Shown: positions 1 to 39,701, counted from the stretch's first letter. The stretch: DNA of 39,701 nucleotides from an uncultured Candidatus Saccharibacteria bacterium (GCA_964532765.1 CAZHNC010000001.1:1-39701); one strand, 5' to 3'. Notes: a model not told the origin generated them from the sequence alone. Translations and numbers: made by a program.

Positions 1-914
1 GAAGTTTTAAGCACATCTCCAGTAAACATTAAAGCTCTTCCAAGGCCAATTATTAAACCTGTTATATTGCTTATTAACTCCTCATTTTCTGATAAACTTT
101 CAATAGAATTGTTTAAATTTCTTAAGAATTTATTAAATTCTGGGTCAAGTTGTTTACCTAAAGAAGCATATAGATTAGTCATATTACTTTTAAGAACTTT
201 CATTTGATTAGCAGTACTTCCTATGGTTCTCTCTGCATCGCCTTGCAAAAATGCTGTTTTACTAAGCACAAAGTTATATCTAAGTTGAACTCTTTCAGCT
301 TCTGTCATATCTTTATAAAGTTTTGTTATACCTTGTTGCATAGCAAAGTTTTTAAGATTAACTTCGGTCATTACTACACCAAAACGTTTAAGTGTTTCTG
401 TCTCCCCTGTGTATATACTGTTTAAAGCTGTCTGCGCTTCACTATCAGCTACATTCCAAAAACTTCCTATGTCTACAGCTCTTTTAGTAAGTGTCATCCC
501 CATTTCTTCAAGTTTATCACTAGTAAATCCAGCACCTTTTCCTAATGCTCCAAACTGTGAAACCATTTGACGCATTTGTAGGTTACTTCTACCCATGGCT
601 TTACCCATCATATCAGCATTTAAAGCTATTGCGCTAAATCTATCTTCGCCAAACGTAACATTAATTACGTTATCTAGTTCAGTCATTGCACTAGCCGTTT
701 TAATACTTTCAACTGCTATATCTTTTAGAGTTTTTACTGCTATTGCCGATACTGCTGCCCATGCTACTTTTGAAGCATTTTCTATAGAGAATATATCGTT
801 TTTAATGCTTCCAGTAGTTTTTTTACTTAAATTTTCTGCGTCTTGCATACTTCTTTTATAGTCCTTATCATTCAGCTTGAGGACTGCTTCCAAGTCTGCT
901 ACTTGCATTGCCAT
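1..914 (-). CDS. Tail tape measure protein, N-terminal part (continues across the window ends into 37652..39701)
   Basis: ATG at 914 behind a GGGGG RBS. The minus frame is open to nt 1. Translation MAMQVADLEAVLKLNDKDYK...FGEDRFSAIALNADMMGKAMGRS...GALGKGAGF looks like a TP901-type tape-measure core. Absent from the ORF track because no stop lies in this part. Confidence 0.9.
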   Translation of the reverse strand, partial: MAMQVADLEAVLKLNDKDYKRSMQDAENLSKKTTGSIKNDIFSIENASKVAWAAVSAIAVKTLKDIAVESIKTASAMTELDNVINVTFGEDRFSAIALNADMMGKAMGRSNLQMRQMVSQFGALGKGAGFTSDKLEEMGMTLTKRAVDIGSFWNVADSEAQTALNSIYTGETETLKRFGVVMTEVNLKNFAMQQGITKLYKDMTEAERVQLRYNFVLSKTAFLQGDAERTIGSTANQMKVLKSNMTNLYASLGKQLDPEFNKFLRNLNNSIESLSENEELISNITGLIIGLGRALMFTGDVLKT

Positions 915-928
915 ATTTTAACCCCCTT

Positions 929-1551
929 TCAGTTCATAAGGATTTCGTTTATTTCTTCTAAAAGTTCAAAGTTTTCTTCAAACTCAATCGGTGCTTTATG
1001 TTCTCTTTTAACAAGTTCAATAGGTTTGTATTTACCGCCCATCATGGAATGTGGAGCTAACCAGTTCAATTGAGTTTCTAATAAAGTTAATTTTTCTTTA
1101 AAATATTCATTGTCTGATTCAACTTTTATAGTAACTTCAAATAATGTTAAATTTAAAAATTGCTCTAATGTGCAAAAGTTTTTCTTGATAAAGTTCTTAT
1201 AAAGTTCTCTGTAATCTAAATAGAACTCTCTTTCTTTGACAACATTTCTTTTGTTCTTAGATACATTAGAGCTCTTAGAAAACCCTCTGGGTCAACATAC
1301 CTCATAAAAATCATTGTACACTCTTTAACTAGATTTTTCTCTGTATTATTGCTTAAAAACTCTTCTAGCTCGTTTCCTGTTCCTGTGTTACATAAGTCTA
1401 GGAAGTATCTTAAAAACACTTTATCAGCCTTTAAAATGGCTTGTGTTATGCACTCGTTTAAATCTGCACCTTCATATCCTTGAAGTATAATTCCTTTTTG
1501 GTGTGATAGCTGTAATTCTATTGCTTTTTTTAAATTATATTCAAATTTCAT
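929..1551 (-). CDS. Tail assembly chaperone, -1 frameshift fusion product (gpGT-like, ~207 aa)
   Basis: The -1 frame relative to 1216..1551 stays open from the heptamer at 1279..1285 to TGA 929..931, just before the tape-measure RBS. This is the classic position between the major tail and tape measure genes. Confidence 0.7.
1216..1551 (-). CDS. Tail assembly chaperone (gpG-like, 111 aa)
   Basis: ORF track. Lies immediately upstream of the tape measure gene and downstream of the major tail gene. About 300 nt with no zero-frame ORF follows it. Confidence 0.75.
   Translation of the reverse strand: MKFEYNLKKAIELQLSHQKGIILQGYEGADLNECITQAILKADKVFLRYFLDLCNTGTGNELEEFLSNNTEKNLVKECTMIFMRYVDPEGFLRALMYLRTKEMLSKKESSI
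1279..1285 (-). promoter_or_regulatory. -1 programmed ribosomal frameshift slippery heptamer G_GGT_TTT
   Basis: Plus strand aaaaccc is GGGTTTT on the coding strand. Zero-frame codons are GAG GGT TTT (frame checked from ATG 1551), which fits X_XXY_YYZ. Confidence 0.65.
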
Positions 1552-5938: not shown

Positions 5939-6610
5939 TAAAAGTTTATTTATATAATCTACTCCCTTTTGGAATACAACTGTTTTAATGTGTATTTTAA
6001 CATCTCCACCATGAATATAACTTGTTTCTATAGTCCTAAAATATCCTCTGTCTATGTAAGTTTGATAAGGTTGATTTTTACTATCAAGAATTTTTCTTTC
6101 TCTTAAAATTTCAAACAGTTTGTTTCTTCCTAAATTCCTAATATTTAAAGTTTTTGCTAGTGACCCAATATCTATAGTGTCTTTACTATCAATTATTTGG
6201 TCGTAAAATTCAACTTTAGGCTTTTGGTACTCAATTTCTTTCTTGTAGTTTTCAATTTCTTTTTGTGCAATTTGTAAGGCTCTTGCCATTATTCGTGTAG
6301 GACTATTCCAAGCTTTTTCCAATTCTATCAAATAGTTTCTATACTCAAAAGCTTTTTTAGTTGGCATTTGCATAACTAAATTTTTAGCCATTTCTAGTGT
6401 GCAACAATAATCTTTAGTTTCGTTGCCGTTCGTCATTAAGACGAAGGACTGATAATCAATGTTTTCTACAAAGAATATATTTTCTTCTACATTTTTAATT
6501 ATCCATCTCGACCAGTTGCTCTTTTCCATTTCTGCACCCAAGTAAATTTCTTTTAAACTCTGTACAAATTGTGTGTTGTCCTTTTCTGTTACTTTGATTA
6601 ATTCTTGCAT
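5927..6610 (-). CDS. ant: Phage antirepressor (AntA-like N-terminal domain + KilAC C-terminal domain)
   Basis: N-terminal SNWSRWIIKNVEENIFFVENIDY resembles AntA. C-terminal SLAKTLNIRNLGRNKLFEILRERKILDSKNQPYQTYIDRGYF resembles KilAC. Confidence 0.8.
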   Translation of the reverse strand: MQELIKVTEKDNTQFVQSLKEIYLGAEMEKSNWSRWIIKNVEENIFFVENIDYQSFVLMTNGNETKDYCCTLEMAKNLVMQMPTKKAFEYRNYLIELEKAWNSPTRIMARALQIAQKEIENYKKEIEYQKPKVEFYDQIIDSKDTIDIGSLAKTLNIRNLGRNKLFEILRERKILDSKNQPYQTYIDRGYFRTIETSYIHGGDVKIHIKTVVFQKGVDYINKLLKTE

Positions 6611-6643
6611 TTGTGATTCCTCCTAATTTATTTTTTTTAAATA

Positions 6644-6672
6644 AAAAAGCCATATTGATTTACATCAAAATG
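6644..6672 (-). terminator. Weak terminator-like hairpin in the antirepressor leader
   Basis: CATATTGAT (6651..6659) pairs with ATCAAAATG (6664..6672) with 1 mismatch. GC TTTTTT follows on the coding strand, upstream of the ant RBS. Confidence 0.3.
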
Positions 6673-6727
6673 ACTTGGAGTAGTAGGAAAGCACCCTACA
6701 ATTAGTTACTCATATTCTGCTTTTAAT

Positions 6728-6755
6728 AGTATATTTCTTCATACACATTACTCAA
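6728..6755 (-). promoter_or_regulatory. Candidate promoter of the antirepressor cassette
   Basis: Coding strand TTGAGT-16-TATACT. Confidence 0.4.
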
Positions 6756-6807
6756 TAAATAAATTTTACAAATTTAACAATAACAATATACCACTATTCT
6801 AAAAATT

Positions 6808-7911
6808 TTACAACTCTTTTTTTACTTCTTTTATTCTTTGCGTGTATTTTCTAGATGTTTGCTCTAACCTCTTAATTTTTCTTTTATCCTTGTCCAGTTG
6901 CGATTCTGATAAACTCTTTCTTTTCTCTAAATTATTCTTTTTAGCGTATCTAAGTTTATTTAACTTCTGTTCGTTGTCATATTGCTTAATCTGTGCCTTT
7001 GTACGTGTATCTGTAAGGTTGTTTGAGTACTTTTTAACCTCTTCTACATTATCGCTGTAATCTTCGTAATATGCTGTTATACGGTGTTTACAACGATTGT
7101 GCAATTGATTATATCCTTTCTTAAATCCTGGGATATCGTATAAGTAAGGATAATCACTTCTATTCTTGTTAGTTGTATACACTCTACCTTCAGCATACGT
7201 TCCACATACAGGACAACAAGTATAATGTGTGCTAAACTGCACTAAATCATTTTCTAGTTGCTCGTTACTATCAACTACTGCTTGATTGGTAGCACAGGCT
7301 ATACTTGACCTAATTTGTATCTCTGCATAGGATTTTAGATTTATACTCCTCATATTACCTAGACTATCTGCATAGATAAAACTAGTCATACCGTAATCAG
7401 TCATTTTCTGCATTATATTAGCTACAGACTGTTTTCTAAGGTCTCCGCCTATTATTTGATTGTTAGCTTGGTCCTTAACTATATCTGCTATGTACTTTTT
7501 ATTTTCCAATTCCATGGCACTCAACTGATTTTGTATACCCTTGAAGTATTTTTCTTGTCCTTGTTGCATATAGTTTATATATTCCTCTTGCAACCTTAAA
7601 ATATCCTTGCTATCTGTATAATTCCAGTCATTTTCAAACTTTTTACCTGTTATCATTTCAAATAGTCTTAAACTATCTTCTACATTTATCGTATAAGCTT
7701 GCTTAATCTTTTTTAAGAAGCTTCTTGACGTTACATCTAATCTTAATAAGTCATCTTTCAGCTGCTTTAATAAAGAGATTTTACGTTGTTTGTTGAAACT
7801 TCCTTTTTCATCATAAAATTTAGGATTAGATAATTGAGAAGTTAAGTTTGCACTCAACCTCTCTATTTGTTTTTTATATTCACTTACTATATATTCGACC
7901 TCTTTGTCCAT
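6808..7911 (-). CDS. Head morphogenesis / minor capsid protein (SPP1 gp7 / Mu F-like)
   Basis: Motifs HYTCCPVCGTYAEGRVY and LHNRCKHRITAY are typical of the Mu F/gp7 family. Long basic C-terminal tail. Confidence 0.8.
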   Translation of the reverse strand: MDKEVEYIVSEYKKQIERLSANLTSQLSNPKFYDEKGSFNKQRKISLLKQLKDDLLRLDVTSRSFLKKIKQAYTINVEDSLRLFEMITGKKFENDWNYTDSKDILRLQEEYINYMQQGQEKYFKGIQNQLSAMELENKKYIADIVKDQANNQIIGGDLRKQSVANIMQKMTDYGMTSFIYADSLGNMRSINLKSYAEIQIRSSIACATNQAVVDSNEQLENDLVQFSTHYTCCPVCGTYAEGRVYTTNKNRSDYPYLYDIPGFKKGYNQLHNRCKHRITAYYEDYSDNVEEVKKYSNNLTDTRTKAQIKQYDNEQKLNKLRYAKKNNLEKRKSLSESQLDKDKRKIKRLEQTSRKYTQRIKEVKKEL

Positions 7912-7924: not shown

Positions 7925-9193
7925 TTAAAATAACTCTTCCCATGAAGTTGTTAAGGCCACATCACTGGCTCCAGTAGAAGTCATTATATAACATATATAA
8001 TCATTTGGTAAACTTCTTATTTCTTGATTAAGCAAATCTAATGTTTTGGAATCAACTTTAGATAGAGATACAGCAAAAGTAAGTTCTGCATCTGTTAAAT
8101 CAACTGTAGCAGTTGGATTAACTTCTATCATGGAATTAGTACTTATATCTGACCAGGTTCCACCTGTGGGGGTTGTTGCTAGTTTCCATCTTTCAAAAGT
8201 TACATTTTTAGTTCCATCTGTGGCTATTGTTAAATATTTTAATAGGCTTTCAACTCTATTTTCTACTGGCGTGGTTCCATAATTTTGTTTTAAATGAAAT
8301 AAATTTATTACATTATTTATGTTTGCTGTCAAAGTTTTTGTAGTTTTACTTGTAAAAATCCTGCTAGATATTATCCTATTATATCCTCCTATACTTCCGC
8401 AAGCCACTGAAGCACTTGAAACTTTAACATTTGTAGTATTTCCACTATTTACATTCTCTATACCTATTTTTAAATAAGGCAAACTTACATGAGGAGTTGT
8501 GTTTCTATTTTGATATTCTATAGTGTGGAAATTTACCCAACCTGTATCAGTTAGTACCCAATATTTAATTGACCCAGCACCTAAATATATAAAGCTTATT
8601 CTAAATACATTTAATTTTGTTGTATCTATTAAAAATTTACTTTCTCCAGTCCCATCTAATTTGTCCTGGTTGAAATCTTCTTGTTTTATAAATTCTAAAT
8701 CAACCGAATCTTTTCTTCTTAGTATCCCAAAGTCTAACCCATTAAATCCTATTGCATAACCGTTTAAATTGTCAAATAATCCTATAAATCTTTTGTTATT
8801 AACAACCGGACTATCCCATGTAGCCGTAAAAAAGCAAAACGCTTCTTGACCTGCTTTATAAGGTAAACTTCTTTTACTTCTACCTATAGAACTTCCACTT
8901 GCATTCGTTCCGCTTCCTAAAACTAGCATACTATTTGTATTTGAAATGGTTCCACCTAGAGCCAATATACTTTGCAGTTTTCTAGTGTCTGATTGATAAG
9001 CAAAATTAGAAACAAAGGCCATATTTACATCTCCAACTATTTGTTCTCCGAATCCACTTTTAAAATTACTTTCCCCCAAAGGGTTAGCATCTCCGTTAAT
9101 TGTTAAACCTTTCATAATCTTCTTGTTAGCTTCCATTTCAAGATACCCTGCGTTAATATCATCCAAATCCACACCATTAAAAATATCTGCCAT
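7925..9193 (-). CDS. Hypothetical beta-rich protein (422 aa) heading the head-morphogenesis transcription unit
   Basis: ORF track, GGGG RBS and own promoter. Composition and alternating patterns suggest a beta-sandwich. No family recognised. Confidence 0.55.
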   Translation of the reverse strand: MADIFNGVDLDDINAGYLEMEANKKIMKGLTINGDANPLGESNFKSGFGEQIVGDVNMAFVSNFAYQSDTRKLQSILALGGTISNTNSMLVLGSGTNASGSSIGRSKRSLPYKAGQEAFCFFTATWDSPVVNNKRFIGLFDNLNGYAIGFNGLDFGILRRKDSVDLEFIKQEDFNQDKLDGTGESKFLIDTTKLNVFRISFIYLGAGSIKYWVLTDTGWVNFHTIEYQNRNTTPHVSLPYLKIGIENVNSGNTTNVKVSSASVACGSIGGYNRIISSRIFTSKTTKTLTANINNVINLFHLKQNYGTTPVENRVESLLKYLTIATDGTKNVTFERWKLATTPTGGTWSDISTNSMIEVNPTATVDLTDAELTFAVSLSKVDSKTLDLLNQEIRSLPNDYICYIMTSTGASDVALTTSWEELF

Positions 9194-9243: not shown

Positions 9244-9265
9244 ATAAAAAAGAGTAGAAATTAAT

Positions 9266-9397
9266 CTAGTCAAATATAAACTTAACTGTTAGCATAAATA
9301 AGCTATAAATCCATAAGCTTGTTATTGTCACAAATAAAATTTTTATACTTGGGTAGAATAGTTTACTGTTGTAGAATAATAGCCATAGTTTTTTCAT
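9266..9397 (-). CDS. Small hydrophobic protein (43 aa)
   Basis: Hand-translated MKKLWLLFYNSKLFYPSIKILFVTITSLWIYSLFMLTVKFIFD. Below the track cutoff. Confidence 0.35.
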   Translation of the reverse strand: MKKLWLLFYNSKLFYPSIKILFVTITSLWIYSLFMLTVKFIFD

Positions 9398-9532
9398 TAT
9401 ATCACACCTTGAAATTTACTGTCTGCATCATATGTATCTTTTATTTTTTTCATAAAAAGCACACTCCTCATTGTTAGTTAATAATTGTTTTTAATTCATT
9501 GTTAATAATCATTCTTATTAGATTCTACTTTG

Positions 9533-9612
9533 CTAGAGAGGGGGTCTAAAGCAAACTAGAGAGGGGGTGTCTACTAAAGTAGAGAGGCTACTAGAGCAAA
9601 CTAGAGAGGGTC
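9533..9612. repeat. Four iteron-like direct repeats (22-23 bp period)
   Basis: CTAGAGAGGGGGT at 9533 and 9556 (identical), GTAGAGAGGC at 9579, CTAGAGAGGGTC at 9601. A G-rich patch in an AT-rich genome that ends 3 nt from the RepA_N-like stop codon. Confidence 0.8.
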
Positions 9613-9614
9613 TT

Positions 9615-9977
9615 TTATTCTTCAACTAAATATGCTATATATATAAGTGTAGAAGAATCATACTGATGTTTCCTTTCTATCAGTGCTTTTTTCTCTAATA
9701 AATCAAGTGCATTAGATATTGGGGTATTAGTAACATTTAACTTGTCCTTTAGCTCGGTATAAGTGTATTTTACATATACCCCTTTATCATCATAATAACC
9801 ATTTTTAGCAGATAATTTACCCCTATCAAATAACAACACATAAATTTTAAAAGCTGTTTCAGTAATTTCTTTTCTCATAAACATATCAAATACAAGCTTC
9901 TGAACTTGATAATAAATAAATCCATGACCTTCTAAATCTTCAAATACTTCTTTAGTAAAATAATAGTGTTTTATCAT
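9615..9977 (-). CDS. RepA_N-like winged-helix protein (120 aa)
   Basis: AFKIYVLLFDRGKLSAKNGYYDDKGVYVKYTYTELKDKLNVTNTPISNALDLLEKKALIERK follows the RepA_N pattern (AK.lY.LL.DR..LS.kNgw.De.G.vY...t..EL). Confidence 0.65.
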   Translation of the reverse strand: MIKHYYFTKEVFEDLEGHGFIYYQVQKLVFDMFMRKEITETAFKIYVLLFDRGKLSAKNGYYDDKGVYVKYTYTELKDKLNVTNTPISNALDLLEKKALIERKHQYDSSTLIYIAYLVEE

Positions 9978-9980
9978 TCA

Positions 9981-10109
9981 TCAATTACTCTCCTCTATTT
10001 CAATCGTTATTCTTTCCCCTTTCTCAAGATTTAATTTTTCCATTACATCTTTAGGAATAACTACTCCAATACTTGCACCTACAGTTACTAATTTTAATGT
10101 TAATTTCAT
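9981..10109 (-). CDS. AbrB/SpoVT/MazE-type small DNA-binding protein (42 aa)
   Basis: Hand-translated MKLTLKLVTVGASIGVVIPKDVMEKLNLEKGERITIEIEESN behind the RBS GGAGGT. The V/IPKD...L.L..GD/E motif is present. Confidence 0.6.
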   Translation of the reverse strand: MKLTLKLVTVGASIGVVIPKDVMEKLNLEKGERITIEIEESN

Positions 10110-10135
10110 GTATTACCTCCTTTTTATTATAATTA

Positions 10136-10164
10136 ATTATAACTCTTTATAAATAAAAAGTCAA
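10136..10164 (-). promoter_or_regulatory. Near-consensus promoter of the AbrB-like/RepA_N-like unit
   Basis: Coding strand TTGACT-17-TATAAT. Confidence 0.6.
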
Positions 10165-10169: not shown

Positions 10170-10197
10170 TAAAAAAGAGCAGTAATTAAACTACTCT
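10170..10197 (-). terminator. Intrinsic terminator after the 525-aa gene
   Basis: AGAGUAGU pairs with ACUGCUCU (one G-U pair). T6 follows on the coding strand. Confidence 0.55.
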
Positions 10198-10206
10198 TAG
10201 TGTAAA

Positions 10207-11784
10207 TTAATTTATAGTTTTTGTAACAACTTGTTCCCCTGTATATTGTCCACCTATTTGGTCATCCCAAACTAAATGATACTCTATTTCACTTCCTTGA
10301 GTAAGTTTTGAACTATCTATGTTCCATTCAAAATAGTATCTTTCTTTACCATCGAATATTAGCATAGATTTAAATTCTCCTATAGATGTTCTAATTACTA
10401 CAAAAGGTAGTCTTACTAGTTCCCATGACATAGCTTCTAAGTCTAAATATACTTTAGTTAATAAAGGAGTAGAAATTGATATATCATCAACACCATTTAA
10501 TCTTAAATATGGCTTCCACGGAATAGGTGCTTCTGGAACTACAGGAACAAATTTTAATATTTCAATTAATGTTTTTGAACTTCCATCAGGGTCGAGAAAG
10601 TAAATAAATTCTCCATCAGTATCGCTTATGTGATATGAAGCTGAATATCTTTCTAATAAATCTATGTTATCAACTCTTACTGCTATACCACGGCTTCCAC
10701 AATTAACAATAATAGAATCTTTTTCAGTTATACCCAGTATGTTTAACTCTAAAAGTTGTCTTGCTCCTGTAGGCACACCATCATCTTTATAAATTGATTT
10801 TGGAATTAAAGGCAAATTAGGCTCAATCCAAGGTTTCCAATCTCCATTATACATTTGCAATGTGTGCCTTCTTCCACTTCTTATATCTAAAGCCTCAAGT
10901 ATTTTATAGTTTTGGCTAGTATCGAAAACATTTACATAGAAATCATTATCTCCTACATTGTATCCAGTTGGCAAATTATCTGTCATTCCAAAACATCTAT
11001 ATAAACCACTTTTATCAAAGAAAGTTTGGAAATTTTTTGTTTTATCTTTGAATTTACCTATAAGATTATCTGTGAAATAATCTGAAAATTTACCTTGACC
11101 AGTAAACAATTGGTCATACACATCATAATCCCAATAATTTAACCATCTCCAGCATAAAGTAGTTCCTTTAAAAATATTACCACTACCAAATTTTACACCA
11201 AATTTACCATCAGGATATCCATCATCTACGTTATGTGTTATGTATGCAGATGCTCCCCAACTGCTATAAATAAAATCAAATTTAATTGGGTTTATGACAT
11301 CACTATCATGGTTTACAAACTCTATAGTGTCTTTATTCACTGTTAGATTTTTGTAGTCATCACCATACCAAGTTAAGCATGTTTGGATTGATTTATCATT
11401 TATAGTATTATTATTAAACCAAAGGATAATTGGCTTTTCATCTGTTGGGTCATCTTGAATAACATAGGAATACTCTCTTATTATATTTTTATCACTATAA
11501 ACTACAGGGTTAGTATTTCCAGTACACCCATATGAAGCGTTTATTTCACTTCTTATAAGAGATTTATCCTCTCCTACAGCATGCTTAATATTTAGATTAT
11601 ATTCCCTCAAATCTAAATAATTAGCGTCAACCCATTCTCCAGTTGACCTTAGGTATCTTCCTTGAGGAGAATCTTCTACACCTTGATTGTATTCTCCATT
11701 ATCAGATAAAAATTTTGTACCTTTCCCATCAAATATGAAATATATACCTCTATTTTTACAGCTTATCTTTTTTTTATTTTTCAT
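10207..11784 (-). CDS. Hypothetical protein (525 aa), W/Y/D/N/G-rich, function unknown
   Basis: ORF track. Second gene of a promoter/terminator-bounded two-gene cassette. No family recognised. Confidence 0.6.
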   Translation of the reverse strand: MKNKKKISCKNRGIYFIFDGKGTKFLSDNGEYNQGVEDSPQGRYLRSTGEWVDANYLDLREYNLNIKHAVGEDKSLIRSEINASYGCTGNTNPVVYSDKNIIREYSYVIQDDPTDEKPIILWFNNNTINDKSIQTCLTWYGDDYKNLTVNKDTIEFVNHDSDVINPIKFDFIYSSWGASAYITHNVDDGYPDGKFGVKFGSGNIFKGTTLCWRWLNYWDYDVYDQLFTGQGKFSDYFTDNLIGKFKDKTKNFQTFFDKSGLYRCFGMTDNLPTGYNVGDNDFYVNVFDTSQNYKILEALDIRSGRRHTLQMYNGDWKPWIEPNLPLIPKSIYKDDGVPTGARQLLELNILGITEKDSIIVNCGSRGIAVRVDNIDLLERYSASYHISDTDGEFIYFLDPDGSSKTLIEILKFVPVVPEAPIPWKPYLRLNGVDDISISTPLLTKVYLDLEAMSWELVRLPFVVIRTSIGEFKSMLIFDGKERYYFEWNIDSSKLTQGSEIEYHLVWDDQIGGQYTGEQVVTKTIN

Positions 11785-11796
11785 ATAGCACCTCCA

Positions 11797-12246
11797 TTAA
11801 GCTTCAAAAGTTTGAACTAAATCAGAATCATATTTTATCATTCTTGTATCTCTAAACTCAATACTCAATGTATAAGTTCTGCTTGATAAAGTAGAAAAAT
11901 CCATTGGAGACAAAATATAATATCCAGTTTCATCTTTTTCAACGTCCAAACTAATCCAACCACCACTGTAATCAATAGTTATAGTAGCTTTATCAAATAA
12001 ACTCTGATTTTGTATAGCTAAAGTAATATTTATCCTTTCATTTTCTGCTTTCTTAGGTAAAAAACTTGCATTAAAACTAGTTATAATTGGATAAGAAAAG
12101 TTTGTTCCTGGACTTATTCCACCTTCAATTACTTGTACACAAGCCATCGCTATTAGTGTGGTTGTTGCTAACTCGCTTGTTTCTAACCCTAGAATCTTCA
12201 TCGCTGCCATTCGTTCAAGTGTACTTGTTGCTACATTATTATCCAT
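11797..12246 (-). CDS. Hypothetical protein (149 aa)
   Basis: ORF track, trimmed to the ATG at 12246, which is properly spaced from the GGGGG RBS. Confidence 0.55.
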   Translation of the reverse strand: MDNNVATSTLERMAAMKILGLETSELATTTLIAMACVQVIEGGISPGTNFSYPIITSFNASFLPKKAENERINITLAIQNQSLFDKATITIDYSGGWISLDVEKDETGYYILSPMDFSTLSSRTYTLSIEFRDTRMIKYDSDLVQTFEA

Positions 12247-12275
12247 ACATACCATACCCCCTTTTTTATATCTTA

Positions 12276-12304
12276 ATTATATAACTAATATATAATAAAA
12301 TCAA
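12276..12304 (-). promoter_or_regulatory. Candidate promoter of the 149-aa/525-aa cassette
   Basis: Coding strand TTGATT-17-TATAAT. Confidence 0.45.
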
Positions 12305-12323: not shown

Positions 12324-12346
12324 AAAAAAAGACTAGTTTCCTAGTC
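12324..12346 (-). terminator. Intrinsic terminator ending the small-gene operon
   Basis: GACTAG-GAAA-CTAGTC hairpin followed by T7 on the coding strand. Confidence 0.65.
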
Positions 12347-12347
12347 C

Positions 12348-12679: not shown

Positions 12680-12688
12680 TAAAACCTC

Positions 12689-14340: not shown

Positions 14341-14370
14341 TTAAACCTCCTTAAAATTGATTTAAAAAAT

Positions 14371-16585: not shown

Positions 16586-16596
16586 TTTTACCCCCT

Positions 16597-27644: not shown

Positions 27645-27806
27645 TTATTTCCCCCTATCCAACAAAATTTTCTCTCCATCAAATACAAAAGTTAATTTAT
27701 CCTTATCTTTTATATTACACATTCTAGCAATGTCTTTTGGTATGTTTAAAACTAACTGACCTTTTTTGCTTAATTGTTGAACTGTTGATGTTTTTTCTAT
27801 GTTCAT
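27645..27806 (-). CDS. AbrB/SpoVT-type small DNA-binding protein (53 aa), first leftward gene of the switch
   Basis: Hand-translated MNIEKTSTVQQLSKKGQLVLNIPKDIARMCNIKDKDKLTFVFDGEKILLDRGK. RBS AAGGAG. Carries the IPKD motif seen in the 9981..10109 paralogue. Confidence 0.55.
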   Translation of the reverse strand: MNIEKTSTVQQLSKKGQLVLNIPKDIARMCNIKDKDKLTFVFDGEKILLDRGK

Positions 27807-27827
27807 TATATCAACTCCTTTTTATAA

Positions 27828-27911
27828 ATATTAACACAAAAAAAATAATTTGTCAATATTCAAAAAAATATTAAAATTAATATTGACATTAACTATTTTT
27901 AGGTATATAAT
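27828..27911. promoter_or_regulatory. Divergent back-to-back promoters with operator-like symmetry (genetic switch)
   Basis: Rightward TTGACA(27883..27888)-17-TATAAT(27906..27911). Leftward TTGACA(rc 27851..27856)-17-TAATAT(rc 27828..27833). Inverted repeat TGTCAATATT/AATATTGACA. AATATT boxes at 27855, 27867 and 27879. Confidence 0.7.
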
Positions 27912-27940
27912 CTAATTAACAAATACATAGGAGGTCAACT

Positions 27941-28174
27941 ATGAGAATAAATTTAGAGGTATTTTTAACAGAAAGAGAAATTGCTAAAAAAACAGGAAAT
28001 ACAAACTTTTTAACTTGGTTAGATTTTCAAATTGAAAAGTATTTAATGCAAGAGGAAATAAAAGTAGCTAAACGTAACAAATTAGCTGAAATAGAGTTTT
28101 TATTAGGAGATTCAAGTATTCCTAAAGATATTTTGTTAAATGCTAAAAATGAGATTATAGGAGGTTTGATATGA
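27941..28174 (+). CDS. First rightward early gene (77 aa), possible Cro-like regulator
   Basis: ORF track. RBS AGGAGGT. LTEREIAKKTGNTNFLTWL could be a helix-turn-helix. Call is mainly positional. Confidence 0.35.
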   Translation: MRINLEVFLTEREIAKKTGNTNFLTWLDFQIEKYLMQEEIKVAKRNKLAEIEFLLGDSSIPKDILLNAKNEIIGGLI

Positions 28175-28815
28175 TATATAAAAAGTTGTTAGCTGTACAA
28201 AAAGAAATAAAAGGTCTTGGAAAAGATGCAACAAGTGGTTCTGGCAATTTTGGATATAAATATGTAACTGGGTCAAAAGTTTTAGAAGCTATAAAGCCAA
28301 TACTTAACGAACAAGGTTTAATATTAAAGCAAGAAATTGTTAAAGTTGAAAATGAAAGAATTGATTATACTACTAAAAACGGAAGTAAATCAGAAATGTT
28401 ATATAAAGTTTGGCAAAAATTTACGTGGATTGATACAGAAACAGGAGAAAAAGACGAAAACGAATTTTATGCAGCAGGTCAAAACGATTGGGAAAAAGGT
28501 TTAGGAAGTGCTTTAACTTATGCTGAAAGGTATTTTTTATTAAAATATTTCCACATAGCTACTGATGAAGATGATATAGATAACTCTGAAAGAAAAGCAG
28601 AAGAGCAAAAGAAATCAATTGCAGAAGAAAACAAAAGAAAAGATGCAGCAATTAAATTTATAACCGAATTTGTAGGAAATGACATGGATAAATTTGAAAA
28701 AGTTTTAGCACACATGAATAAAACTTTTAATAGTAATCACAAAGGATTCAACACATTTAATTTAGAAGAACTTGAAGGATATAATGAAGCTTTAAAAAAG
28801 AAAGGTGGTAAATGA
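28171..28815 (+). CDS. erf: ERF-family single-strand annealing recombinase
   Basis: KKLLAVQKEIKGLGKDA...FGYKYVTGSKVLEAIKPILNEQGL...GSALTYAERYFLLKYFHIATDEDDID is the typical ERF pattern. Confidence 0.85.
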   Translation: MIYKKLLAVQKEIKGLGKDATSGSGNFGYKYVTGSKVLEAIKPILNEQGLILKQEIVKVENERIDYTTKNGSKSEMLYKVWQKFTWIDTETGEKDENEFYAAGQNDWEKGLGSALTYAERYFLLKYFHIATDEDDIDNSERKAEEQKKSIAEENKRKDAAIKFITEFVGNDMDKFEKVLAHMNKTFNSNHKGFNTFNLEELEGYNEALKKKGGK

Positions 28816-29225
28816 TGGCTGTATTTAGTTTAAAAAATAGTTTTGTCAATAAAGTAGAAGAAAAAAATGGATTTATTAAAGCTAATCTTTCTGATAGTAG
28901 AAAGAAAGCTGATGGTACTTGGGAAAGTTTCCAATGGTTAGGTTGCTCGATTATGTGGAATGCTAAATCTGTGGAGATTAAAGAAGGTGACAAGATTAAT
29001 GCAGAAGGTATAATTTATCAAGAAAAGTATCAAGATAAATGGTTTACAAAAGTAGTTATATTTGGAATATCAATAGAAGGCCACAAAGGAGAAACTAAAA
29101 CAGAAGCACCTAAAAAGTCAAATAAAATTAAAATGAATGATGTTAAAGTGGATTTACCTAAATCTGAATTACCTGATATACAATTTGATGATGATGACGA
29201 GTTTGACAAAATATTTGGTCAATAA
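28812..29225 (+). CDS. ssb: Single-stranded DNA-binding protein-like (OB-fold with acidic tail)
   Basis: Follows erf. Acidic C-terminal tail DIQFDDDDEFDKIF. Size fits a short SSB. Confidence 0.55.
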   Translation: MMAVFSLKNSFVNKVEEKNGFIKANLSDSRKKADGTWESFQWLGCSIMWNAKSVEIKEGDKINAEGIIYQEKYQDKWFTKVVIFGISIEGHKGETKTEAPKKSNKIKMNDVKVDLPKSELPDIQFDDDDEFDKIFGQ

Positions 29226-29273
29226 TACAGTTTGCTAGTTCTATTAAAAAACTAGCTAAAATTGGAGGTCAAT

Positions 29274-29735
29274 ATGAAATTATACGAGTTGCAAGTTATG
29301 AATAATCAATTACTAGAATTACTTGAAAAAGAAGAAATAACTCAAGAAGATTATGAAGATAACAAACAAATGTTAGTTGAATTATTAGAAGATAAATCTG
29401 AAAGTTTAGTTTTTGTAAATATGGAATTTGATTCTGAAATTAACAGGTTAAAAGAAGTTGAAAAAATGTTAGTTGAAAAAAGAAAAAAACTTGAAGCTAA
29501 ACAAGAAAAATTTAAAGAATTTGTTTTAAATACACTTGATTCTTTAGGAATTGAAAAAGTTAAAACTACAATTGGAGAAATAAAAATAACTAAATCAACA
29601 AGCACTATTGTAGATGAAAGTAAACTAGGAAACAACTGTTTTGATTATATCCCTAAAAGAAAAACTATAAAAGAAATTGAAGCACTTGGATATGAATTAG
29701 AAAAACAAACAAATAGAAAAATAACAATAAAATAA
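29274..29735 (+). CDS. Siphovirus Gp157-like protein
   Basis: MKLYELQVMNNQLLELLEKEE N-terminus and ~153-aa size, located in an Erf/SSB module. Trimmed to the ATG at 29274 behind GGAGGT. Confidence 0.55.
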   Translation: MKLYELQVMNNQLLELLEKEEITQEDYEDNKQMLVELLEDKSESLVFVNMEFDSEINRLKEVEKMLVEKRKKLEAKQEKFKEFVLNTLDSLGIEKVKTTIGEIKITKSTSTIVDESKLGNNCFDYIPKRKTIKEIEALGYELEKQTNRKITIK

Positions 29736-29749
29736 CTGGAGGTCAACAA

Positions 29750-30682
29750 ATGAGAAAAGCAAGTCACGAGAAAACACTTCACTACACAATAGGAGAAGCA
29801 GGAGGGCAAATAGGGGAAATATTCAAACAGAATAAATATGATGTTATAGCTTATAATACAGCTAAAGCTGATATGGATAAGTTAAAACAAATTACTGATA
29901 AAAGACTTATAGGAATCACAGAAGGAAGTGGAAAAGATAGAAAACTTTCTGCAAAATCTTTTGAGGATAACATAGATAAAATAAGAACTTCTGTTACACA
30001 AGATATGTCAAACAAGGAAGTTGCTTTTGTTTATACTTCTATGAGTGGTGGTACAGGAAGTGGATCCGCAATAAGACTAGCTAAACTGATTAACCAATTA
30101 GGTAAAAAAGCTATCATAGTTGCTGTAAAGCCTGTCAATGGAGAAATAGGAAAAGCTGAAAATAACTATTTGCAATTTTTAGCTGAATTTGAAAAAGATA
30201 AAAATGATCTAGTGTTAAATATGTTTGAGAATGAATTTGATTATGTAAAAATTAACAAGTACATCTATGAAACAATTGATAATTTCTTAAATCCTGTAGG
30301 AGAAAGTATCACAACTTTTGACTTTATGGACTCTTTAAAAGCTTTTAGAAGTGGTTATTGTGTAATGGCTACTGGAAACACTAAAGAAATTATAATAAAC
30401 TCAATGTTTGAATTAAACAAGTCTGAAACTTGTGTGTTAATCTCTCAAAGCCCACAATCTGTAGATGGATACCAAGAAATGACAAAGAGAAATTACGGTT
30501 ACCTGGATAGACAATACTACGAATACAGAGTTCAAGAAAATCCTAAGTGGACTATATTGATTGGTGGTTTACAGTTACCAGTTGAAACTATTTCAGTTTT
30601 AGCAAAAGAAGTTAATCAGAAAGCACAATTGCTTAATGCTAAAAAAGATGCTTTAACTTTCAACATTTTAGGTATAGATTAA
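29750..30682 (+). CDS. Tubulin/FtsZ-superfamily GTPase (PhuZ/TubZ-like, 310 aa)
   Basis: Loops in canonical order: T1 TIGEAGGQIGEIF, AYNTAKAD, T3 GITEGSGKD, T4 SMSGGTGSGS (fits the tubulin signature [SAG]GGTG[SA]G), T5 VKPVNGE, T7 TFDFMD...GYCVMATG. Confidence 0.85.
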   Translation: MRKASHEKTLHYTIGEAGGQIGEIFKQNKYDVIAYNTAKADMDKLKQITDKRLIGITEGSGKDRKLSAKSFEDNIDKIRTSVTQDMSNKEVAFVYTSMSGGTGSGSAIRLAKLINQLGKKAIIVAVKPVNGEIGKAENNYLQFLAEFEKDKNDLVLNMFENEFDYVKINKYIYETIDNFLNPVGESITTFDFMDSLKAFRSGYCVMATGNTKEIIINSMFELNKSETCVLISQSPQSVDGYQEMTKRNYGYLDRQYYEYRVQENPKWTILIGGLQLPVETISVLAKEVNQKAQLLNAKKDALTFNILGID

Positions 30683-30691
30683 GGAGTATAT

Positions 30692-31177
30692 ATGAAACAC
30701 CTACTAATATTTTTAATTTTATCAATTTCGTGTTTAGCTGAAACTTTTAGTTTTGGCTATTCACTTAATACAACTCATATAAAGTCGCCTAGTCGTGATT
30801 ATGACTTTGTAGAGGATAATCAAGTATTTACACTAGAGAAACGCAATGGAAGCGAAATAAAAGGTTTTACGCACTTTACAAACAGTTTTGGAAATGAAAG
30901 TGCAATGATATACATAGGACAAATTAAAGATAAGAATAATAAATGTTTGTATTTTAAATACTCTTTTGGATTGTGTAAAGGTTATAATGAAGTTGATAAA
31001 TTACCGAGCAAAACTATTAAAAATATGTATTGGGAGTTTAGAAATTATACTGTATTTTATAAAGATTATTCAATAGTTCCAATGGTTTCAGTAGGTTATC
31101 AATTCAGCAAGGATTTAGCATTAGAAACACTTTTAGTAGGAAATGCTTTTGTTACTAATATTAAAATAACTTTTTAG
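30692..31177 (+). CDS. Small secreted outer-membrane beta-barrel candidate (161 aa)
   Basis: Signal peptide MKHLLIFLILSISCLA. C-terminal beta-signal FVTNIKITF with alternating hydrophobic residues and a terminal Phe. Mature size ~145 aa fits an 8-stranded barrel. Confidence 0.55.
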   Translation: MKHLLIFLILSISCLAETFSFGYSLNTTHIKSPSRDYDFVEDNQVFTLEKRNGSEIKGFTHFTNSFGNESAMIYIGQIKDKNNKCLYFKYSFGLCKGYNEVDKLPSKTIKNMYWEFRNYTVFYKDYSIVPMVSVGYQFSKDLALETLLVGNAFVTNIKITF

Positions 31178-31185
31178 GAGGAATA

Positions 31186-31335
31186 ATGGAAAATAGAAAA
31201 GCAAATGAAGAGTATACGAATGATGAACTTTTTAATTTTGTTAAAAGTGGAGAAATACCTCGCGGAGTTTTTCAAGTTATGAAGAAAAGAGCTTCGTTGA
31301 ATAGATTAAAATTTGTATGGGTATTGAAAGTATGA
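31186..31335 (+). CDS. Hypothetical protein (49 aa)
   Basis: Hand-translated MENRKANEEYTNDELFNFVKSGEIPRGVFQVMKKRASLNRLKFVWVLKV. RBS AGGAGG. ATGA overlap with the next gene. Confidence 0.4.
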   Translation: MENRKANEEYTNDELFNFVKSGEIPRGVFQVMKKRASLNRLKFVWVLKV

Positions 31336-31814
31336 GAAATGAGAAAATACTTTTATCTATAGACCCTGGTAATGAATTTTCTGCATATTGTTTAATTGAT
31401 ATGAATACATATAAACCAATAAAATTTGGAAAAGTTACTAATCAAGAATTAAAAGATTATTTACAAAGCGAAGAATTTTCAGATATTTTCTCAAATAATT
31501 ATATGTATTTTTCAATAGAAATGATTGCATCTTATGGAATGGCTGTAGGACAAACTGTATTTGAAACTTGTGTATGGATAGGTAGATTTATTGAAATAAT
31601 GTGTTGCACACATAAATTTATATACAGAAAAGATGTTAAAATAAATTTATGTGGCACTATGAAAGCAAAAGATACAAATATAAGACAAGCTTTAATTGAT
31701 AGGTTTGGAGAAGTTGGAACTAAAAAAAATCAAGGTTTCTTTTATGGATTTAAAGCTGATATATGGAGTGCATATGCTGTTGGAGTAACTTTTATAGATA
31801 CTTGTAAACACTAG
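31332..31814 (+). CDS. RuvC-like Holliday junction resolvase
   Basis: ILLSIDPGNEFSAYCLID, SIEMIASYG and ADIWSAYAVG match the acidic-residue motifs of phage RuvC-fold resolvases. Trimmed to the ATG at 31332. Confidence 0.65.
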   Translation: MRNEKILLSIDPGNEFSAYCLIDMNTYKPIKFGKVTNQELKDYLQSEEFSDIFSNNYMYFSIEMIASYGMAVGQTVFETCVWIGRFIEIMCCTHKFIYRKDVKINLCGTMKAKDTNIRQALIDRFGEVGTKKNQGFFYGFKADIWSAYAVGVTFIDTCKH

Positions 31815-31840: not shown

Positions 31841-31866
31841 AAAAGGGCAATTAAGCCCTTTTTAAA
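31841..31866. terminator. Bidirectional terminator between convergent operons
   Basis: AAAGGGC (31842..31848) pairs with GCCCTTT (31855..31861), with T/A runs on both sides. Confidence 0.65.
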
Positions 31867-37278: not shown

Positions 37279-37652
37279 ACTACATCAACCCTTTGACAAG
37301 TTATTGAAAAGCTTCTGCCGTCTGATTGCCATTGTCCGTTTTTCCAAAATCTAGCAGTTTGAGTATCCATGGATAACTTTGCAAAAAACTTTTCTCCACT
37401 TTCTGTATCTTTAACTCCACAAGTATAATCTCCTGTTATTTTTCCATTGATATTTGTACCTTGTGTGTTTGTTTGAGTGTTATTCCTAAACTCGATAAAC
37501 CTAGCTATACGTTGCCAAATGTCTTTTGACTGTAAGTTAAAATTATATGTAGCTTGTCTATTCAAGTCAAATACTTCGCTTATATCACGAATTGGTGGAG
37601 TTGTAACAACTGGTATCGACCAATTATCGTCATTGTATAGTATAAGTGCCAT
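37275..37652 (-). CDS. Minor tail protein (distal tail position, 125 aa)
   Basis: Immediately follows the tape-measure gene (TAATG junction) and overlaps the tail tip gene (ATGA). Confidence 0.4.
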   Translation of the reverse strand: MALILYNDDNWSIPVVTTPPIRDISEVFDLNRQATYNFNLQSKDIWQRIARFIEFRNNTQTNTQGTNINGKITGDYTCGVKDTESGEKFFAKLSMDTQTARFWKNGQWQSDGRSFSITCQRVDVV

Positions 37653-39701
37653 TAGTAAGACCTCCTTGCGTTTCCTGTTTGATTAAATCTACTTTGATTT
37701 TGACTAGTTGCCACCATTTCGCTAAAATCTTTTGAGTAGTTGTTCTCAATTCTATATATAGTTTGATAAGTTTGGCCGTAACTTGCATTACTAGATTGAA
37801 ACTCTGCACTAGCTACTTTTAATCCAGTAGGTAAATTTTTTGTTGAAACTTGGTTTAGTTGTTCAGTTGCTGAACTTGCTGCAAGTCCTAATCGTTCTAA
37901 AATTTCTTGTAATTTTTCGCTAGAGGCTCCATAAATTTCGGTATAAGCTGCCAACATTTCTTCAAAACTCATACCTTTAAAATCTATTCCTAAATTAATT
38001 CCTTCAGTTGTTAATTCGTTTAGCAAAGCTTCAGATATTGCACCACTAAAGTTTTTATTAAGAGCTTCAAAGGCTTGTTGGCTAAAGAAAGCTTCTATCA
38101 AACCATTTTTAAACATATCTGTAACACTTTCAGATATACTTCCACCACTTTTAAATACATCTACCATGTTAGAAATAAAGTCTTGACTAGATAGACTTAA
38201 AGCTTCTGCAAACCCATCAATATTTGTCTGCCATGCTTCAGCAATCAATTTATTTATTTCTGCCATAGCTCCAGTTACATCATAACCACTTATATATGAC
38301 TTTTCTTTACCCCAGTCTGACAAATCTCTGTAAGTTTCTCTTTTTGCGTATTTACCAAAGATTGCGTCAACATCAATACCACTATAACCACCACCAGCAA
38401 GAGCTTTTTTAATCGCTGTAGTGTCGACTGTTGCGTTTTTAGAACCCCAAGAAACACTACCACCACCAAGTATACCACTTATTATGTCGAAAGGTGCAGT
38501 TAATAGACCTTGATTAAGTCCACCACCTCCAACACCACCAGCCATTAGATCACTTGGTTTTGTTAATTGTGCGAAAGATATCTTTTGTCCTAAAGTAAAA
38601 TCTTCAACTGACTTTTTGAAACTTTCAACAGCTTCTTGGAATTTAGTATTAGCTTCATTTTGCTTTTCTTCCATGTCACTATCATTTAAAAAACTATCTA
38701 ATTGATTAACTAAAGCTAAACCACTTGAAATACTCCCTAAAACATTTCCACTCATTAAGCTTGTAGCTAGGTTTCCACCAGCACCAATTAAACTTGCCAT
38801 AGCTCCTAGAAGGTCATCTTCAAATAATGTTGCTAACTCTCCAGCTATTTTAGAAGTTTCAGAAAATGCATCGCCAACTTTAGCTATTTTTTTTCTGTTT
38901 TCTTCTTGAATCCTTTGAGCTTCTTCGTTTGTTTTTTTAATGTTTTCTAATTCTTTGTTATTTTTTTCTTCCTGTAGTTTTATTTCTTTTTCTTTAGCTT
39001 CGTTTTCTTTATCTTGTTTTTTCTTTAGATTGTCCTCAAACTTTTGTTGTTGTCTTTTTTCAAAGTTATCGTAATCTTGCATAGCCTTTTCAAATCCAGC
39101 TTCTAATACTACATTAGTTTCTAAATCTGTAACAGTTGTTCCACCTGTACCAGTTGAGCTACTTCCTCCTGTACCTGTGCCTTTATTATTGTTTATATCG
39201 TTTACCCATTCATTATCTGTGAAAACTTTAAAATCTCCACTTTTACGCAAATCATTTAATAAAGTATCTTGATTTCCTGTATCTAGTCCTAAAGTTCCAA
39301 AAGTCATATTATAAGTTTTACTTGCTGCCGTTCCAGCTTCTTTATAACTTCCGCCTTTTTCAAGTATACTTCTAGCCGTTCCAAGTGCTGCAGTAACTGA
39401 AATTTGTTTTTTAACTTCTATACTCATTCCTTTTGTAAACTTTACATAAAAACTTAAAGTATCAAATAAATCTTGTCCTATTTCTGATTTTGTCTGTCTA
39501 CTAGAATTTATTAATTCTTTAAAACTTCCTTTAATTCCATCTGTAATATTTTCAATACTAGTTGCAGTTGTTTCTAAAGGTTTTTCTATTCCTAAAGCCC
39601 AATTTCCAACTTTTTCAAATATTCCACTAAACTGTTCAAAACCATTGGCTATATTAGTTAATGATTCTCCAAAAGTATCTACGTAACCTAGTGTTACAAA
39701 C
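37652..39701 (-). CDS. Tail tape measure protein, C-terminal part (continuation of 1..914)
   Basis: The frame of the tracked ORF 37652..39427 stays open upstream to 39701 (...FVTLGYVDTFGESLTNIANGF...KGMSIEVKKQ). Contains a coiled-coil K/E-rich centre and Gly-rich tracts. Confidence 0.9.
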   Translation of the reverse strand, partial: FVTLGYVDTFGESLTNIANGFEQFSGIFEKVGNWALGIEKPLETTATSIENITDGIKGSFKELINSSRQTKSEIGQDLFDTLSFYVKFTKGMSIEVKKQISVTAALGTARSILEKGGSYKEAGTAASKTYNMTFGTLGLDTGNQDTLLNDLRKSGDFKVFTDNEWVNDINNNKGTGTGGSSSTGTGGTTVTDLETNVVLEAGFEKAMQDYDNFEKRQQQKFEDNLKKKQDKENEAKEKEIKLQEEKNNKELENIKKTNEEAQRIQEENRKKIAKVGDAFSETSKIAGELATLFEDDLLGAMASLIGAGGNLATSLMSGNVLGSISSGLALVNQLDSFLNDSDMEEKQNEANTKFQEAVESFKKSVEDFTLGQKISFAQLTKPSDLMAGGVGGGGLNQGLLTAPFDIISGILGGGSVSWGSKNATVDTTAIKKALAGGGYSGIDVDAIFGKYAKRETYRDLSDWGKEKSYISGYDVTGAMAEINKLIAEAWQTNIDGFAEALSLSSQDFISNMVDVFKSGGSISESVTDMFKNGLIEAFFSQQAFEALNKNFSGAISEALLNELTTEGINLGIDFKGMSFEEMLAAYTEIYGASSEKLQEILERLGLAASSATEQLNQVSTKNLPTGLKVASAEFQSSNASYGQTYQTIYRIENNYSKDFSEMVATSQNQSRFNQTGNARRSY

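Follow-up and report, generated by a model that had tools for sequence, protein, structure and literature searches.

Does the 39,701-bp stretch CAZHNC010000001.1:1-39701 (GCA_964532765.1) belong to a prophage that lives as a plasmid, or to a phage that has put plasmid parts to another use? This entire stretch, hereafter the window (GC ~29%), carries a TubZ/PhuZ-type tubulin homologue and a RepA_N/iteron cassette. An earlier interpretation, here called the sequence-only reading, had taken the two as the ingredients of type III plasmid maintenance, in analogy to the c-st plasmid-prophage, and had proposed a low-copy extrachromosomal prophage. We find that the window is the complete circular genome of an uncultured, lambdoid-style, non-integrating siphovirus of the Fusobacteriaceae. 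Because both "plasmid" modules lack parts that known systems need, a plasmid-like prophage life is possible though unproven. At a probability of roughly 45%, we favor a non-integrating phage in a lytic or carrier state, with plasmid-derived parts that function in early DNA handling or in inter-element competition.

Tubulin homologue and RepA_N cassette

All 68 open reading frames (ORFs) of at least 40 amino acids (aa) in the window were scanned against Pfam (E ≤ 0.01) and PHROGs (E ≤ 0.001). The tubulin homologue (Table 1) scores 43.6 bits against Pfam Tubulin (cut-off 33), matches PHROG 4733 "tubulin PhuZ" with E 1e-10, and retains an intact GGTGSG loop and DFMD T7-like motif. Its best sequence match in the PDB is c-st TubZ (4xcq, 3v3t; E about 1e-7). 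Likewise, Foldseek ranks c-st TubZ first for the AF2 model (pLDDT 76, pTM 0.79), followed by phiKZ TubZ, Goslar PhuZ, and Bacillus TubZ. Thus, the tubulin/FtsZ-like protein of the sequence-only reading is confirmed.

Type III partition consists of TubZ, TubR, and tubC repeats upstream of tubR-tubZ (PMC6009700). The window contains the TubZ motor, while TubR, an upstream tubC, and the C-terminal TubZ tail are missing; a motor is present without a recognizable cognate adaptor. Two TubR-like proteins from plasmid loci find no match in the window by tblastn. The gene upstream of the tubulin encodes Gp157 in the window and a DUF3799 nuclease in L005, a 38.1-kb ENA scaffold whose tubulin is 72% identical. 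No tubC-type repeat array lies near 29750 in the window or upstream of the L005 tubulin gene, and the only iterons in the window comparable to tubC are those at 9534-9610 and 25819-25951. Moreover, tubulins of the phage clade are 25-50 residues shorter at the C-terminus than their plasmid relatives and lack the terminal D-[VI]-F..F motif of the latter (alignment A1). The proposed pair of type III ingredients is consequently not supported, as TubR and tubC are absent here and in L005 and RepA_N serves replication rather than partition.

The nearest plasmid homologue of the tubulin, on Cetobacterium somerae plasmid p3 (32% identity, 96% coverage), has a 90-aa gene 2 nt upstream and parA nearby, the classical tubR-tubZ layout. 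A distant clade (P0008, 30% identity; L009-L014) occurs on plasmid-like elements, with at least 24 contigs of up to 40 kb, an overlapping 88-aa gene upstream in the tubR position, and resolvase/integrase, KAP NTPase, and toxin-antitoxin genes nearby. No relatives of the window tubulin were found by tblastn against phages, in IMG/VR, or in GTDB genomes. On its other side, the gene of the outer-membrane barrel protein begins 10 nt past the tubulin gene and is conserved beside it in L005 (10947-11432, 73% identity). Between the window and L005, this tubulin/barrel pair is kept and the flanking recombination genes are swapped (Erf/SSB/Gp157/RuvC-like vs RecT/DUF3799/RecU).

We propose that the tubulin is a GTP-dependent filament former and a TubZ/PhuZ relative that would have lost the TubR/tubC adaptor and the adaptor-binding tail. 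It would position or organize replicating phage DNA early in infection, like PhuZ of jumbo phages and AlpC of prophage CGP3; phage cytoskeletal proteins such as AlpC can serve replication or the lytic cycle (PMC4446434). Early positioning or organization of phage DNA is the most likely function, and that of a canonical partition motor is less likely.

The RepA_N cassette is an autonomous unit with its own promoter. Its 120-aa protein reaches Pfam RepA_N marginally (30.2 bits, cut-off 30), and its family profile A3 matches crystallized RepA N-terminal domains (4pta, 4pt7, 4pql, 5kbj) over the whole length with E of ~1e-13 to 1e-14. Full-length RepA_N initiators from Fusobacterium prophage-like phages share 43% identity with it over their N-terminal 100 aa, and the RepA of a C. 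somerae megaplasmid (359 aa; L020) shares 35%. The motif CCTCTCTA occurs in four copies at 22-23-bp spacing (9534-9610) and 7 times in the whole window, against 1.3 expected; iterons of this cassette were found nowhere else in the window. In full-length RepA_N genes (L016, L017, L020), three to four 23-24-nt iterons and AT-rich repeats lie within the gene, directly after the N-terminal domain. The window keeps this order of N-terminal domain, four repeats, and AT-rich tract, and its 120-aa ORF terminates ahead of the repeats, at precisely the point where the full-length homologues leave the N-terminal domain.

What the cassette lacks is the C-terminal domain: tblastn with the C. somerae RepA matches only the N-terminal domain in the window. 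From a RepA_N initiator, it retains the N-terminal winged-helix domain and, directly after its coding region, the Rep boxes and AT-rich region of a putative origin. The pSK41 initiator contacts four Rep boxes within rep through residues 1-120 and cannot dispense with its C-terminal domain (PMC5703833). Because this essential domain is missing, the cassette can probably not fire an origin alone. Hence, the RepA_N/iteron module of the sequence-only reading holds for the N-terminal domain and the four iterons, but not for a complete initiator. Nor is RepA_N a plasmid marker, since some prophage-like phages of Fusobacterium (L016, L017) also use it as their ordinary replication protein.

Two other identities of the 120-aa protein were rejected. 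A truncated pseudogene does not agree with relatives at 58-91% identity that are all 117-120 aa long and with an architecture kept in other phages. TubR does not agree with a profile that matches RepA N-terminal-domain structures, and TubR-like queries have no match to the protein.

The cassette recurs on two metagenomic phage contigs (L028, 1409-2110; L029, 2141-2790), one of which is clearly from another phage type. In both, the unit consists of a promoter of its own, a small regulator gene, and the N-terminal domain, together with an AT-rich block and four iterons that belong to the same sequence family as those of the window. The regulator is swapped, RHH in L028 and L029 versus AbrB in the window, while the AT-rich block TAATAAGAATGATTATTAA is kept; relative to L028 and L029, iterons one to three of the window are in inverted orientation. 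IMG/VR and GTDB genomes hold no relatives of the N-terminal-domain family, and JGI metagenomes returned only contigs <2.6 kb. Several independent Logan assemblies (L023-L027) break within or beside the cassette; one contig ends 135 nt past the RepA_N gene, and three of 1.1-1.3 kb hold the cassette alone. These breaks suggest either a repeat-induced effect or population heterogeneity. The strongly hydrophobic 43-aa ORF at the end of the cassette may encode a small membrane toxin or a holin-like peptide under read-through control.

A second set of iterons lies inside the λ O-like initiator gene (25819-25951), where 3.2 copies of a 23-nt repeat are accompanied by 15/27-nt AT-rich repeats; the O-like homologue of L005 has the same origin layout. 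The O-like gene supplies the main origin, complete and separate from the RepA_N cassette. The cassette, which is probably autoregulated, encodes the iteron-binding N-terminal domain alone, beside four Rep boxes and an AT-rich tract. More likely than independent firing would be copy control or handcuffing, incompatibility or exclusion, or an auxiliary origin that needs factors in trans.

Genome organization and integration machinery

The 987-aa tape-measure ORF reads in frame across both ends of the window, which is therefore a closed or circularly permuted genome. Nearly every ORF is on the minus strand, the exception being a 3.9-kb plus-strand block, the rightward early operon. Pfam and PHROGs identify siphovirus packaging and head genes (small and large terminase, portal, SPP1-gp7-type minor head protein, scaffold, and the major head protein of PHROG 422) as well as tail and lysis genes (head-tail connectors, major tail protein, tape measure, a 1173-aa tail protein, tail fibre, and a GH19/lysozyme endolysin). 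Thus, a complete tailed-phage gene set is located on one replicon, as expected of a phage-plasmid.

The nearest named relatives of the large terminase (53-60% identical) are from Fusobacterium ulcerans, C. somerae, and C. ceti. Together with the outer-membrane barrel protein, they point to a diderm host of the Fusobacteriaceae and not to a clostridium. The c-st analogy of the sequence-only reading consequently survives in c-st TubZ as the closest solved structure, but its clostridial framing is wrong. The F. ulcerans and C. somerae terminase relatives were discarded as lifestyle evidence: the genomes are mosaic and have only packaging and head genes in common, hence they are uninformative on lifestyle.

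Exact or near-exact copies of window proteins occur only on metagenomic contigs of ≤39.7 kb, mainly from the run series SRR100832xx and further from other ENA and JGI contigs, and several runs yielded independent contigs that are colinear with it. By megablast, the window has zero matches among GenBank phages and in PLSDB. In a search of PLSDB, GTDB, and metagenomic contigs for the element as a separate circle or as an integrated copy, no relative of either kind was found.

In the Pfam and PHROGs scans, none of the 68 ORFs matches a tyrosine or serine recombinase, DDE transposase, excisionase, or protelomerase. Relaxing Pfam to E ≤ 10 for ten unannotated proteins brings up zero recombinase families, and tblastn with integrase, resolvase, and transposase proteins from other loci has no match in the window. 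ARAGORN detects 0 tRNAs, and Rfam 0 families, including no c4-like RNA. The predicted lack of recombinase hallmarks and of a tRNA-like attP is therefore upheld. In lambdoid phages, att/int sits at the position equivalent to the junction between the convergent operons. Here, the last genes of these operons are 48 bp apart with a terminator between them, so that no room is left for attP/int, and no long non-coding attP candidate is present at this junction. Further, host genes or flanks are absent from every contig examined. The early region of L005 is likewise free of an integrase, which makes the absence a feature of the lineage and not an assembly gap. Taken together, non-integration is well supported.

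Table 1. Coordinates of features in the window (39,701 bp), with strand and basis of assignment.
Feature	Position	Strand	Basis
Tape-measure gene, 5' part	37652-39701	-	PHROGs, ORF continuity with 1-914
Ant/AntA antirepressor-type protein, 227 aa	5927-6610	-	ANT E 1e-25; AntA; PHROG 63 E 8e-51
422-aa virion structural protein	7925-9193	-	PHROG 1645, E 5e-32
Autonomous RepA_N cassette (third accessory unit)	9245-10164	-	Pfam, repeat and promoter/terminator scans
Hydrophobic 43-aa ORF MKKLWLLFYNSKLFYPSIKILFVTITSLWIYSLFMLTVKFIFD	9266-9397	-	Directly downstream of iterons, same terminator-bounded unit
Small ORF in RepA_N cassette	9397-9471	-	
AT-rich tract	9468-9533	-	
Four iterons, 22-23 bp	9534-9610	-	Repeat scan
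RepA_N N-terminal domain, 120 aa	9615-9977	-	Pfam, profile vs PDB
AbrB/MazE-like 42-aa ORF	9981-10109	-	
RepA_N cassette promoter	10136-10164	-	
Accessory unit, 152-aa and 525-aa genes, own promoter and terminator	10175-12304	-	Promoter/terminator scan
525-aa protein gene	10207-11784	-	
Accessory unit, nine small genes including YopX and DUF551, 12/12 consensus promoter to terminator	12328-14738	-	Pfam, promoter/terminator scan
Packaging genes together	14799-18712	-	
Portal	14799-16403	-	Pfam, PHROGs
Large terminase	16597-18333	-	Pfam, PHROGs
Small terminase	18311-18712	-	Pfam, PHROGs
λ O-like replication initiator, 234 aa	25531-26235	-	PHROG 678
Divergent early promoter region	27806-27941	.	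Promoter match
Rightward early operon	27941-31814	+	Pfam, PHROGs
77-aa unannotated protein	Heads rightward early operon	+	
Erf	28171-28815	+	Pfam/PHROGs
SSB-like protein, acidic tail	28812-29225	+	Pfam/PHROGs
Gp157/Gam-like protein, 157 aa	29262-29735	+	Pfam/PHROGs
TubZ/PhuZ-type tubulin homologue, 310 aa	29750-30682	+	Pfam, PHROGs, PDB, Foldseek
161-aa PagP-type outer-membrane β-barrel-like protein, signal peptide, ends ...ITF	30692-31177	+	PHROGs
49-aa ORF	Rightward early operon, between barrel and resolvase genes	+	
Holliday-junction resolvase (RuvC-like)	31317-31814	+	Pfam/PHROGs
Bidirectional terminator between convergent operons	31841-31862	.	

Early transcription appears to start from a divergent pair of promoters. 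The rightward promoter (27883-27911) matches TTGACA-17-TATAAT at 12/12 positions, the leftward one (start 27856) scores 10/12, and both -35 boxes lie inside the inverted repeat TGTCAATATT/AATATTGACA. Zero genes are located between them; the first leftward gene encodes a 53-aa AbrB-type protein and the first rightward gene the unannotated 77-aa protein. No CI-, C1-, or CB-like repressor was found anywhere in the window by Pfam scans, including those at E ≤ 10 on ten proteins, and the only candidate small regulators in the genome are the 42- and 53-aa AbrB-type proteins and a 42-aa RHH protein. Since neither an intervening gene nor a CI-like repressor is found, the region resembles λ pL/pR without cI rather than a demonstrated CI/Cro switch. 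The divergent switch of the sequence-only reading is thus reduced to its back-to-back consensus promoters.

In our model, these two promoters would drive the whole genome. The leftward transcript would run from the small AbrB-type regulator via the O-like initiator with its in-gene origin to the packaging, head, tail, and lysis genes, and the rightward, pL-like early operon would express Erf, SSB, Gp157, the tubulin, the outer-membrane barrel, and the junction resolvase. The two small AbrB/SpoVT-type proteins, one heading the long leftward operon (27645-27806, minus strand) and one in the RepA_N cassette (9981-10109, minus strand), have only the family IPKD motif in common.

Portal and minor head genes are adjacent in related Fusobacterium phages, whereas they are ~6.9 kb apart in the window. 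Here, three units fill the stretch from the portal to the 422-aa gene; each has a strong promoter as well as a terminator, and the third is the RepA_N cassette. Along with the Ant gene, which is bracketed by hairpins or terminators on both sides, they bear out the independently promoted cassettes that had been predicted. The antirepressor likewise stands, as ANT, AntA, and PHROG 63 all match (Table 1). Such promoter/terminator units are typical of temperate phages, but they are no proof of temperate life. The ant leader (6610-6808, minus strand; ~200 nt) contains two hairpins, one with a T-run directly before the ant ribosome-binding site, and may be an attenuator or antisense-controlled, by analogy to other ant immunity regions.

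The sequence-only reading had left the 422-aa and 525-aa proteins as unknowns. The former is a virion structural protein (PHROG 1645), whose gene has a promoter-like site of its own. The latter stays without a family, with zero matches in Pfam (E ≤ 10), PHROGs, PADLOC, and the PDB. Its low-confidence AF2 model (pLDDT 56) has an all-beta fold, for which the Foldseek matches are confined to Ig-like adhesins or fibres at very low TM-scores. On these grounds, a divergent integrase was rejected. An 88%-identical copy of the gene resides in an unrelated HK97-capsid phage from the same run series (L031, 3869-5404), and the C-terminal 290 aa recur as the C-termini of unannotated proteins of 800-950 aa. 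Judged from the model and this distribution, the protein behaves as a mobile accessory or adhesin-like module.

In the early-middle region, a DNA methyltransferase (PHROG 757) adjoins a PAPS-reductase/BrxP-like protein (21698-23622, minus strand), and the two may form a DNA-modification or anti-restriction pair. They are the only PADLOC matches in the window. Serglycin matches were spurious, originating from the GS linkers used to concatenate ORFs, and were ignored.

Lifestyle

The favored reading, a non-integrating phage that would be lytic or at most in an unstable carrier state, draws on several observations. The tubulin gene is co-transcribed with early recombination genes and has neither TubR, nearby repeats, nor a C-terminal extension. 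The RepA_N protein ends with its N-terminal domain, short of the C-terminal domain that pSK41 needs, and its cassette is found on other phage contigs as well. In addition, neither integration machinery nor a CI-like repressor was found, and a complete primary origin is located elsewhere. Several observations weigh against it. The structural-gene relatives are prophages of Fusobacterium and Cetobacterium, and temperate phages typically have features such as those seen here: at least four promoter/terminator-bounded accessory cassettes, Ant, and the outer-membrane barrel. Two iteron loci within a single genome recall the dual replicons of P1. The orphan cassette is conserved, iterons included, at 58-66% identity, which points to selection for a function at the DNA level that could be replication. 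Finally, we know of no direct precedent for a tubulin role in the lytic growth of a 40-kb phage.

A true phage-plasmid, that is, a low-copy circular prophage, is a tentative alternative. The RepA_N N-terminal-domain/iteron cassette would then be the maintenance origin, with helicase or primase recruited by host or phage factors, and the tubulin would be the segregation motor, for which the N-terminal domain on its iterons could serve as a non-TubR adaptor; immunity would come from one of the small AbrB-type proteins. The lack of an integrase alongside temperate-type accessory cassettes and Ant would suit such an element, and a known plasmid prophage, IEBH, is also without a recombinase (PMC8026635). 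For the tubulin and the RepA_N module alike, the plasmid homologues that come nearest lie on Cetobacterium plasmids, and the solved structure closest to the tubulin is c-st TubZ. The cassette has a consensus promoter, a small regulator, four iterons at a spacing of two helical turns, and an AT-rich tract, in the same order as in the functional origins inside full-length RepA_N genes, and the separate O-like origin could serve lytic replication.

On the other hand, the essential RepA_N C-terminal domain is absent, the tail-less tubulin has neither TubR nor tubC nor a clearly separate autoregulated promoter, and no repressor was identified, although a small unrecognized one may exist. The cassette and the tubulin gene lie ~20 kb apart, and the parts of L028 (12 kb) and L029 (4.6 kb) covered by the analysis hold the cassette with no tubulin match by tblastn. 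Neither PLSDB, GTDB genomes, nor any contig >39.7 kb contains a relative; this negative, which covers PLSDB by DNA and by large-terminase protein and GTDB for the tubulin and the N-terminal-domain family, is weak evidence. Hence, the low-copy extrachromosomal prophage of the sequence-only reading is supported by non-integration, plasmid-derived functions, and two iteron loci, but is confronted with incomplete modules, no repressor, and no plasmid relative.

Rather unlikely, in our estimate, is a more unusual arrangement, in which the tail-less tubulin and the orphan RepA_N/Rep-box cassette form a split maintenance system, with the N-terminal domain on its iterons as origin and/or centromere and the tubulin as a TubR-free motor, or else in which the tubulin builds a PhuZ-like spindle in the lytic growth of a 40-kb, non-jumbo siphovirus.

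We consider it highly improbable that the phage integrates by means of an unrecognized recombinase or of host Xer-type recombinases. Room for such an enzyme is left by the 525-aa protein and several small proteins without annotation. However, the all-beta, Ig-like model of the 525-aa protein is unlike any recombinase fold and its gene is a mobile accessory present also in an unrelated phage, while tRNAs, a long non-coding attP candidate, and host flanks are missing throughout. Least credible is a chimeric or incomplete assembly that has lost its lysogeny module: the sequence is metagenome-derived and several Logan contigs end near the RepA_N cassette, but the circle closes within an intact 987-aa ORF, independent contigs from several runs are colinear, and L005 is organized in the same way without an integrase.

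The orphan RepA_N/Rep-box cassette and the adaptor-less tubulin of a small phage are the most notable features of the genome. If the phage were a plasmid prophage, it would extend phage-plasmids to the Fusobacteriota, which are clinically relevant and for which few genetic tools exist, and would offer a ~0.9-kb candidate replicon and a segregation motor for vector building. If a split maintenance system were true, it would be the first description of a phage-plasmid from Fusobacteriota and of tubulin-based segregation by way of a non-TubR adaptor; literature searches turned up neither a tubulin from a Fusobacteriaceae phage nor a phage-plasmid of this family. Whatever the lifestyle, a RepA_N N-terminal-domain/Rep-box cassette without the C-terminal domain is conserved on at least two other phage contigs. 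This recurrence suggests an undescribed use of initiator DNA-binding domains, e.g., in incompatibility, exclusion, or trans-dependent origins. Similarly, a compact, adaptor-less TubZ/PhuZ clade in ~40-kb phages bears on how tubulins move between plasmid partition and viral DNA organization.

Comparison with known systems

With c-st TubZRC, the window shares a phage-borne tubulin-fold GTPase, for which c-st TubZ is the best match by both sequence and structure (~18% identity in the structural alignment), and the lack of an integrase-based integration module. In contrast to c-st, it has neither TubR nor an upstream tubC, its 310-aa tubulin ends without the C-terminal adaptor tail, and the gene resides inside an Erf/SSB/resolvase early operon. 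Moreover, the window measures 40 kb versus 186 kb for c-st, and its predicted host is a diderm of the Fusobacteriaceae. PhuZ and phiKZ TubZ are similar in size (about 310-315 aa), have no known DNA adaptor, and are linked to the window tubulin by PHROG 4733 and by Foldseek (3zbq, 9pm9); the location of the window gene in an early operon is consistent with early expression. Unlike their carriers, the window phage is not a jumbo phage, and its tubulin has no evident acidic C-terminal knuckle.

The pSK41-type RepA_N theta replicons correspond to the cassette in the 120-aa winged-helix domain and in the four direct repeats and AT-rich tract immediately 3' of it. In the window, however, the ORF ends before the repeats, without a linker or the C-terminal domain, which in pSK41 is essential and binds DnaG, and the cassette lies among the head genes of a phage. 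The RepA_N proteins of L016, L017, and L020 share the N-terminal domain (35-43% identity) and in-place iterons with AT-rich repeats. They differ in being full length (296-359 aa; 296-324 aa in the phages) and in their iteron sequences, and those of the phages are followed by DnaB-/DnaC-type partners.

Phage P1 persists as a plasmid prophage, uses distinct replicons for plasmid and lytic replication, and has an ant immunity region. Like P1, the window has two iteron/origin loci, an Ant-type protein, and no integrase, but it is devoid of a ParAB-type motor and adaptor, a C1-like repressor, a Cre/Xer-type resolvase, and a complete maintenance initiator. CGP3 differs from the window in that it is integrated and that its AlpC has an actin fold and is co-transcribed with the adaptor AlpA, which is accompanied by alpS repeats. 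Nevertheless, AlpC provides a parallel to the window tubulin as an early cytomotive filament of a phage, needed for efficient replication of phage DNA rather than for inheritance of the prophage (PMC4446434).

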